From positions 99,777 to 163,776 of the forward strand of contig JAFQQD010000031.1 in NCBI GenBank assembly GCA_017411435.1: a stretch of 64,000 nt of DNA. Direction: 5' to 3'. The position numbers were made by a program, and so were the translations under genes. Below are positions 22,340 through 22,667 of this stretch, in pieces. The notes beneath the pieces were generated by a model. That model made no database searches. It was not told the origin of the DNA and was given only the letters and a program-made list of their open reading frames with translations. Numbering within the stretch: position 1 is the stretch's first letter; each line of letters starts with the position of its first letter. The DNA is from Clostridia bacterium. Its GTDB lineage: Bacteria > Bacillota > Clostridia > UMGS1883.

Positions 22340-22367
22340 AAAGGCTGTGAATTGGTCACAGCCTTTT
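22340..22367. repeat. Perfect palindromic hairpin (host terminator), left copy flanking element copy 2.
   Basis: AAAGGCTGTGAATTGGTCACAGCCTTTT. The identical 28-mer recurs at 22640-22667. Confidence 0.85.
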
Positions 22368-22639
22368 CAGCGTGTCGATAAACCTATCGGCACGCTGGCA
22401 GACGAGGAAAAAGGAAGGTAAATTTGTTCAACACGAACTCGTAGGCGCACGAGGGTGCGGTAGAGGGCGTATTGGACGAAAGCAAGCAAAAACCCTGAAA
22501 ATTGCAATTTTCAGGGTTTTTTATTATGTGGCTATGGTGTCTTTTGTTCTTTTATAAGTTTATCGAAAATTTCCAAGCGCTGCAAAAAATATTTATTATT
22601 TATTTTTGCTTGCGTTTGACCGACTTTTTCGACAGTCTG
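22368..22639. mobile_element. MITE-like non-autonomous element, copy 2 (~272 bp).
   Basis: Collinear with 1125-1397, with about 9 mismatches or indels. Same TIRs and the same internal bidirectional terminator (22488-22523). Flanked by a duplicated 28-bp palindrome that differs from the copy-1 flank. Confidence 0.6.
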
Positions 22640-22667
22640 AAAGGCTGTGAATTGGTCACAGCCTTTT
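22640..22667. repeat. Right-flank copy of the 28-bp palindromic hairpin, followed by T6 (terminator).
   Basis: AAAGGCTGTGAATTGGTCACAGCCTTTT then TTAATT. It lies 5 bp from the stop of the 22672-24732 gene. Confidence 0.85.

Follow-up and report, generated by a model that had tools for sequence, protein, structure and literature searches.

Two copies of a short non-coding element occur in the window (the whole 64-kb stretch of DNA analysed here), each lying between two copies of a hairpin, and the locus at 22340-22667 raises the question of what this element is and how one terminator hairpin came to be two.

Two elements between direct repeats of different hairpins

Copy 1 occupies 1125-1397 (273 bp) and copy 2 occupies 22368-22639 (272 bp), both on the forward strand, as read from the window at these coordinates. 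The two copies align end to end with 96.7% identity, and the sequence beyond the repeats is unrelated. Copy 1 is adjoined on both sides by AAGCGAGTTCGTACGAACTCGCTT (1101-1124 and 1398-1421), an exact 24-bp direct repeat, and copy 2 by AAAGGCTGTGAATTGGTCACAGCCTTTT (22340-22367 and 22640-22667), an exact 28-bp direct repeat; these target-site duplications are annotated without strand. The preliminary description had reported a direct duplication of a different hairpin around each copy, which is what the window contains, and it had called both flanks perfectly palindromic, which is true of the 24-bp flank and not of the 28-bp flank, where an 11-bp stem carries an asymmetric ATTGG loop and one unpaired 3' T. 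Because this loop is asymmetric, the two copies of the 28-bp flank can be recognized as direct and not inverted repeats. Both insertions lie between convergent genes, as had been described. The site of copy 1 is placed between a YpsA/DUF1273 ORF (stop at 1100) and HydF (stop at 1424), the 24-bp palindrome being the terminator hairpin of these ypsA-like and hydF genes, and the site of copy 2 lies between a 102-aa ORF (stop at 22305) that follows SpoIIE and a 686-aa SLH/DUF4901 ORF (stop at 22672). No further match to either element end was present in the 64-kb window, and shuffled sequences gave 0 matches.

Empty sites and copies in other genomes

The preliminary description had held that the flanks derive from the target and had predicted that an orthologous locus free of the element would show a single hairpin. 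Such a locus was found at the hydF/ypsA site in three sister-species contigs, in which HydF is 83-84% identical and the gene order mgsA-hydF/ypsA-DUF378 is the same. The hydF-ypsA spacer measures 26-28 bp in these contigs versus 323 bp in the window and holds one hairpin, AAAAAGAGAGTTCATACGAACTCTCTTTT, orthologous to AAGCGAGTTCGTACGAACTCGCTT of the window, and in the alignment the window flanks join exactly across it. This single orthologous hairpin shows that the 24-bp hairpin was duplicated on insertion in the window. The predicted empty junctions for the two window sites are TATAAAAGCGAGTTCGTACGAACTCGCTTTTCTATATC and CAAAAAAAGGCTGTGAATTGGTCACAGCCTTTTTTAATTAC; exact-protein look-ups gave no same-species empty site, every contig having the element or breaking there. 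The spacer at the copy 2 site measures 37-39 bp in three sister contigs and contains one hairpin, which differs in sequence from that of the window, so that the empty site there is architectural and not sequence-orthologous. A footprint was observed at the same site in a sister species (L155:5866-5930, JAZREK010000087.1, orthologous to window 22306-22671), consisting of half a hairpin, AAAAAACGATACATT, followed by TATCGGCACGCTG (13 nt of the left-end hairpin of the element) and a full hairpin, AAAAAAAGCGATACATTCAATATGAATGTATCGCTTTTT. Judging from these remnants, an element was apparently once inserted at the copy 2 site in another lineage and then almost wholly deleted.

A scan of a genome collection with a left-end 22-mer as query, one genome per species, returned at least 119 stretches, and the matches listed all came from uncultured Clostridia/Oscillospiraceae MAGs recovered from the gut of ruminants and humans, each with several copies. 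The MITE family is widespread in gut Clostridia/Oscillospiraceae. From the matches listed, 58 complete copies were extracted, 55 of them with both flanks usable; they are 171-387 bp long (mode 273-275 bp), and their median pairwise identity is 64%. The preliminary description had suggested that the flanks of additional copies be catalogued, and in this catalogue the same locus-specific hairpin stands on both sides of the element in 46/55 copies. An exact direct repeat of 20-42 bp, itself a stem-loop, brackets 27/55 copies, a near-exact hairpin repeat (one or two mismatches or an indel) brackets 15/55, and in 4/55 the stem is the same and the loop is inverted between the two flanks. The remaining 9/55 have unrelated flanks, mostly two different hairpins or a hairpin on one side alone, and such mixed flanks are the expected product of recombination between copies. 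The recurrence of the duplicated-hairpin pattern in 46 of 55 other complete copies at unrelated loci is far beyond chance. Together with the single-hairpin empty site, it supports the target origin of the flanks and the duplication of the whole terminator hairpin.

The hairpin sequence differs from locus to locus, and no common target sequence was seen. Neighbouring genes could be scored for 46 copies (22 convergent, 22 tandem and 2 divergent), so 44/46 have the 3' end of a gene on at least one side, which identifies the 3' ends of genes as the targets. The orientation of the element was unbiased: in tandem gene contexts, 10 copies pointed the same way as the flanking genes and 12 the opposite way.

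Several side observations were made on these copies. The loop-inverted flanking hairpins (L040, L095, L061 and L010) have the same stem with reverse-complemented loops, and in the left-end hairpin of the element itself the loop is flipped (GGTTT vs AAACC) in 4/58 complete copies and in several cut ones (e.g., L038 and L051); these flipped loops look like inversion by template switching or by recombination within the palindrome. In two different MAG species (L037:6564-6829 and L104:1108-1382), an element lies downstream of the same orthologous gene, where the flank is 78% identical, the elements are 71% identical and the duplicated hairpins are wholly different. Likewise, window 22640-22900 and L041 have elements after the same orthologous gene with different hairpins. 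Shared sites with different hairpins reflect either several independent insertions into one terminator or a pair of hairpins that has turned over. At L116, two inverted copies (2888-3130 and 5982-6222), each with its own hairpin, surround one 862-aa gene (3228-5816); the pair resembles a composite transposon, and two independent insertions are the most likely origin. Copies at L144:10003-10225 and L139:1630-1860 are truncated at the 5' side; in place of the left end they run into unrelated sequence or a portion of the left target hairpin, which is evidence for adjacent deletions. Longer variants of 292-341 bp (L035, L049, L112, L070 and L087) have an extra module of ~100 nt (..ACACCTCATCC..GCAAG.. 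/ ..GGGGAAGGC..) in the variable region that separates the internal hairpin from the right end; the module has small hairpins itself and is possibly an optional domain or a nested repeat. Window 41641-41734, an intergenic segment between ORFs 40298-41518 and 41811-43181, is 82% identical to the sequence on the right of the element in L035, a different MAG, and Rfam at the gathering threshold gave no match for this segment. Such conservation is unusual for non-coding DNA, and the segment could be a small RNA or a leader.

The preliminary description had named an alternative in which two independent terminators already bracketed the element and were homogenised by gene conversion or concerted evolution. 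The 9/55 copies with different hairpins or with a hairpin on one side alone would fit this, as would the orthologous sites occupied with different hairpins (L037/L104; window copy 2, L041 and L155). However, the orthologous empty sites show one hairpin and not two, the repeats stop exactly at the element termini in 27 independent loci, the same exact duplications occur in autonomous IS1182 elements (see below), and the mixed flanks are accounted for by recombination between copies. With one hairpin at the empty sites and locus-specific duplicates around 46/55 copies, we consider gene conversion refuted and read the second hairpin as a duplicate made on insertion.

IS1182-type ends, insertion and the effect on termination

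The element has IS1182-type ends, 5'-CAG-N2-TGT-N3-AAA, with the left/right asymmetry of that family, and its termini read CAGCGTGTCGATAAAC...CTTTTTCGACAGTCTG. The left end, CAGCGTGTCGATAAAC, agrees with the left repeat of ISCbo5, CAGGCTGTTGATAAAC, in 13/16 positions, and the reverse complement of the right end, CAGACTGTCGAAAAAG, agrees with the right repeat of ISCbo5, CAGATTGTTCAAAAAG, in 13/16 and with the left repeat of L164, CAGACTGTCGACAAAG, in 15/16; CTGTTGAAAAAGT is common to the MITE termini and ISCfr1. A terminal left-end hairpin is also present in ISCbo5, in the IS of pBCXO1 and in L156, L163, L164, L166 and L182. ISCbo5 on p3BKT015925 is 1613 bp long, with a 30-bp duplicated hairpin and a 454-aa transposase whose score against NF033551 'IS1182 family transposase' is 472 bits (cutoff 270). 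Hairpin duplications of 22 bp and 32 bp flank related elements on an E. faecium plasmid and on B. cereus pBCXO1, respectively, and 20 full-length copies (1506-1683 bp) retrieved from IMG/VR by means of a transposase alignment have CAGnnTG ends and duplicated hairpins of 20-32 bp. The earlier statement that no known DDE transposase family produces a 24-28 bp target duplication is therefore incorrect, as the IS1182 family does so; the direct repeats of this family reportedly range from 0 to 60 bp in ISfinder.

ISCbo5, which belongs to the IS1182 family and occurs in C. botulinum group III and C. novyi-NT, was found to lie almost always in gene-end hairpins (PMC3098183). IS1272, also of the IS1182 family, uses stem-loops as targets without sequence specificity, and the target is deleted (PMC5678879, PMC4923244). 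A published model has attack at the 5' feet duplicate the whole stem-loop (PMC5678879, Fig 13 pathway b); this pathway appears there solely as an alternative to a route that replaces the stem-loop, which is the one proposed for IS1272 (PMC5678879). The matching ends, the left-end hairpin and the hairpin duplication together identify the element as an IS1182-family MITE. Considering all of the above, we regard it as highly probable that the locus was formed by an IS1182-family MITE that inserts into stem-loops at gene 3' ends and turns one hairpin into two. From the sequences compared, duplication of the whole hairpin is a property of the IS1182 family and not a new mechanism, and what is new here is a non-autonomous member of this already known family.

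An autonomous IS1182 element was considered and rejected, as the element has no transposase ORF and no conserved ORF (the overlapping ORFs are at most 71 aa and not conserved) and the family length is 171-387 bp. A small ORF behind the RBS-like GAAAAAGGAAGG was also rejected, since its frames are not conserved and the purine run pairs with the right end in an inverted repeat. The partner transposase was searched for in several ways. No TIR pairs 0.5-4 kb apart were found in 878 kb of MITE loci, and hairpin direct repeats 100-5000 bp apart were those of MITEs alone, plus one intergenic repeat at a miaB-like gene. The latter, an observation apart, is a ~100-bp intergenic segment including the target hairpin on either side of a miaB-like radical-SAM gene (L049:4936-5342 and 7007-7100), where the same hairpin occurs three times within 2 kb and which is not an insertion sequence. 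No match was obtained by blastn against plasmids and 0 matches by the right-end 22-mer against viral contigs, and ~1 Mb of MITE-bearing loci yielded no homologue when queried by tblastn with the ISCbo5 transposase. When metagenomes were scanned for the right end, 16 loci were found, all MITE-sized or 5'-truncated and none an autonomous partner, and no copy longer than 387 bp was among those retrieved from the genome and metagenome scans. MAG assemblies usually lack multicopy insertion sequences, and because of this tendency the absence of the partner is weak evidence. A related observation is that short-read contigs very often end in or at the edge of the element (L004-L006, L126 and many other loci).

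For the insertion we propose a plausible model, in which the attack on a cruciform and the chemistry of the transposase are inferred. What was observed is that the targets lie at gene ends and are defined by structure, that one hairpin becomes two and that the duplication length varies with hairpin size. An IS1182-type DDE transposase supplied in trans would recognise its target by structure, as an extruded cruciform or hairpin, and not by sequence, with active sites at fixed spacing acting on the base of the cruciform. The two 3' ends of the element would be joined to both strands at the 5' feet of the stem-loop, and gap repair would then copy the entire hairpin on either side of the element, which corresponds to pathway b of the published model (PMC5678879). 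A cut at the feet of the stem-loop would make the duplication length track the size of the palindrome (20-42 bp) instead of being fixed.

The duplication also changes the terminators. The preliminary description had proposed that T-runs end up only on the outward-facing sides and that termination of the host genes is weakened. The first part is supported by copy 2, in which full T-runs are left on the outer sides alone and the U-tracts facing inward have lost part of their length (6 to 4 and 7 to 3); a consensus terminator scan no longer called the shortened inward orientations. The second part stands only in part, since the scan still called the left hairpin in its outward-facing orientation and, in both orientations, an internal hairpin of the element at 22488-22521. 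As the element has its own bidirectional terminator-like hairpin, host transcripts are likely still stopped within the element. The hairpins of the element, chiefly the internal bidirectional one, would probably restore the termination that is disturbed when the duplication cuts the U-tracts, and insertions would then be nearly neutral. In several autonomous relatives the left-end hairpin is immediately followed by a T-run, and this sequence feature suggests that IS1182-type elements may rebuild the termination they disturb.

A predicted top-strand fold and comparison with known systems

The features of the element were located in copy 2. On the forward strand, the terminal left-end hairpin H1, CAGCGTGTCGATA-AACC-TATCGGCACGCTG (22368-22397), whose first 16 nt match IS1182-family left ends, is followed by the internal left inverted repeat GCAGAC..GAAAAAGGAAGG (22398-22422), complementary to the right end (helix H2). 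P1 (22423-22481, forward strand) is a 59-nt domain with a 14-bp covarying stem, of which 12/14 pairs have compensatory changes, and its near-invariant loop is TCGTCGGC-GTAC-N4-GTAC-GGTAGAG, conserved as TCGT(C/A)GGCG-YAC-N4-GTRC-GGTAGAG with a 4-bp mini-hairpin at 22447-22458; the loop motif was found in none of the autonomous elements examined. The 5' strand of P0, GCAAGC (22482-22487, forward strand), pairs with GCTTGC at 22608-22613, 6/6 pairs covarying, and extends the long inverted repeat, H2 and P0 together forming an inverted repeat of ~37 bp between the internal left segment and the right end. The internal bidirectional terminator-like hairpin H6, AAAAACCCTGAAAATTGCAATTTTCAGGGTTTTT, lies at 22488-22521 (at 1245-1278 in copy 1, where it is recorded as covarying across the family) and is annotated without strand, and the right inverted repeat TTTTTGCTTGCGTTTGACCGACTTTTTCGACAGTCTG occupies 22603-22639 on the forward strand, its reverse complement CAGACTGTCGAAAAAG matching IS1182-family ends.

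RNAalifold was run on 47 diverged copies and gave a consensus of 63 pairs, 35 of them with compensatory changes. In an independent count, 96.4% of cells were paired, compared with ~40% when partners were slid by one to three columns, and 420 double-change cells were observed vs 109 ± 8 in shuffles; H1 was 100% paired in the 47 copies. The ratio of G.T to A.C mismatches was 79:3 in P1, 14:0 in H1, 16:4 in H2 and 14:2 in P0, with the internal terminator as the exception (19:32). Such an excess of G.T over A.C on the top strand suggests that this strand is under selection in folded form, as RNA or as ssDNA. A dsDNA DDE mechanism leaves the covariation and the top-strand wobble bias of the helices other than the internal terminator unaccounted for. 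One explanation, which we offer tentatively and think possible at rather low probability, is that the element does more than a passive deletion derivative would and that a single-stranded form (ssDNA or RNA) is functional; folded hairpins may then be used on both donor and target, or the family may persist with a REPIN/RAYT-like single-copy enzyme acting in trans. REPIN/RAYT systems consist of short repeats mobilised by one single-copy host transposase. If hairpins were used on both donor and target, IS1182 transposition could be "structure-for-structure", a mechanism without earlier description.

A departure from the IS1182 assignment would be movement through ssDNA or RNA with a non-DDE enzyme (an HUH transposase, a hairpin-recognising recombinase or a Cas1-like integrase), with the similarity to IS1182 ends reflecting shared hairpin-binding logic alone. 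The fold of the whole element and the strand-specific wobble just described are in its favour, together with the absence of a partner transposase from MITE loci and metagenome contigs and the resemblance of the 20-42 bp duplications to CRISPR repeats, which are of similar length. However, the 16-nt termini, the asymmetry of the ends, the left-end hairpin and the duplication all match autonomous IS1182 DDE elements; IS200/IS605 and IS91 types insert without a duplication and depend on a conserved target oligonucleotide, of which there is none here; and no Rfam family was matched, as searches of the window at the gathering threshold and of the element at an E-value threshold returned weak terminator-like matches only. 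We consider a non-DDE route improbable and retain the IS1182-family MITE.

The same fold bears on whether the copies move at all. They could be immobile and vertically inherited, as domesticated structured-RNA or terminator modules under host-level selection, in which case one would understand that copies from different MAGs are diverged (median 64%) yet have kept their fold by compensatory changes, that some orthologous sites are occupied in several species and that a bidirectional terminator lies inside the element. In contrast, the window copies are 96.7% identical though at unrelated loci, the 27 perfect duplications imply recent insertion, the hydF site is empty in sister species, and the unbiased orientation in tandem contexts (10 vs 12) argues against a 3'-UTR RNA role on one strand; this last result also led us to reject the top strand as a read-through 3' UTR as a general explanation. 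Immobility is thus judged very unlikely, and we continue to regard the element as a mobile IS1182-family MITE.

IS1182-family elements are known to target palindromes, and to our knowledge no account of the mechanism has been established. In the staphylococcal cases published so far the hairpin is deleted, and the MITE family duplicates it instead. The MITE family offers dozens of natural insertions whose duplications scale with the size of the hairpin, as would be expected of a transposase that recognises DNA structure and cleaves a cruciform at its base. With regard to annotation, the element explains common contig breaks and 'twin terminators' in gut Clostridia MAGs. In terms of gene expression, each insertion shortens the U-tracts of host terminators and brings in a further, bidirectional terminator. 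Strand-specific covariation within a non-coding transposon is a concrete, testable lead.

Other classes of element were compared and rejected. IS200/IS605-derived elements have subterminal hairpins at both ends, insert 3' of a conserved tetra- or pentanucleotide and make no duplication, as opposed to the long duplications and unshared target sequences found here. Group IIC introns insert after terminators without duplicating them, whereas the hairpin is duplicated here, no Rfam match was obtained and 273 bp is too small. IS110/bridge-RNA elements are sequence-programmed, use a DEDD enzyme and make no duplication, whereas the present targets are unlike each other, duplications are present and no associated recombinase was seen. 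An integron-attC reading was considered and also rejected.

In CRISPR spacer integration and in casposons, staggered attack by Cas1-Cas2 or the casposon enzyme at both borders duplicates the (often palindromic) repeat on either side of the insert. The duplication of a repeat on both sides of inserted DNA is thus shared, by analogy only, as the MITE has no associated Cas1 gene or casposon features and its termini match a DDE family. Among elements directed to palindromes, IS1397/ISKpn1 and ISPpu9/10 recognise specific repeat sequences and are known to make only short duplications or none. These REP/palindrome-targeting IS (IS1397/ISKpn1 and the IS110-family ISPpu9/10) are described as inserting into extragenic palindromes (PMC12288879; bioRxiv 10.64898/2026.03.19.712850). 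Unlike them, the MITE takes any hairpin as its target, and the hairpin is duplicated whole.

Like the MITE, IS1272/TnSha1 of staphylococci target stem-loops, often transcription terminators, that are recognised by structure without a sequence consensus (PMC5678879, PMC4923244). With IS1272 the hairpin is replaced or lost in part and no duplication arises, whereas the MITE duplicates the whole hairpin, and an IS1272-type replacement was rejected for the window, since complete hairpins are present on both sides. The closest resemblance is to ISCbo5/ISBma2, with ends alike in 13/16 positions each, the left/right asymmetry, the left-end hairpin, and insertion into and duplication of a terminator hairpin. 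ISCbo5 differs in its 1613 bp and 454-aa transposase from the window element of 272-273 bp without an ORF, which in turn has the structured P1 and the internal bidirectional terminator, absent from the autonomous elements examined. The IS of E. faecium and pBCXO1 and the IMG/VR copies likewise share CAGnnTG termini and hairpin duplications of 20-32 bp, many with a palindromic left end; these other Firmicute IS1182 elements are autonomous (1.5-1.7 kb), and the duplications of the MITE reach longer, up to 42 bp.
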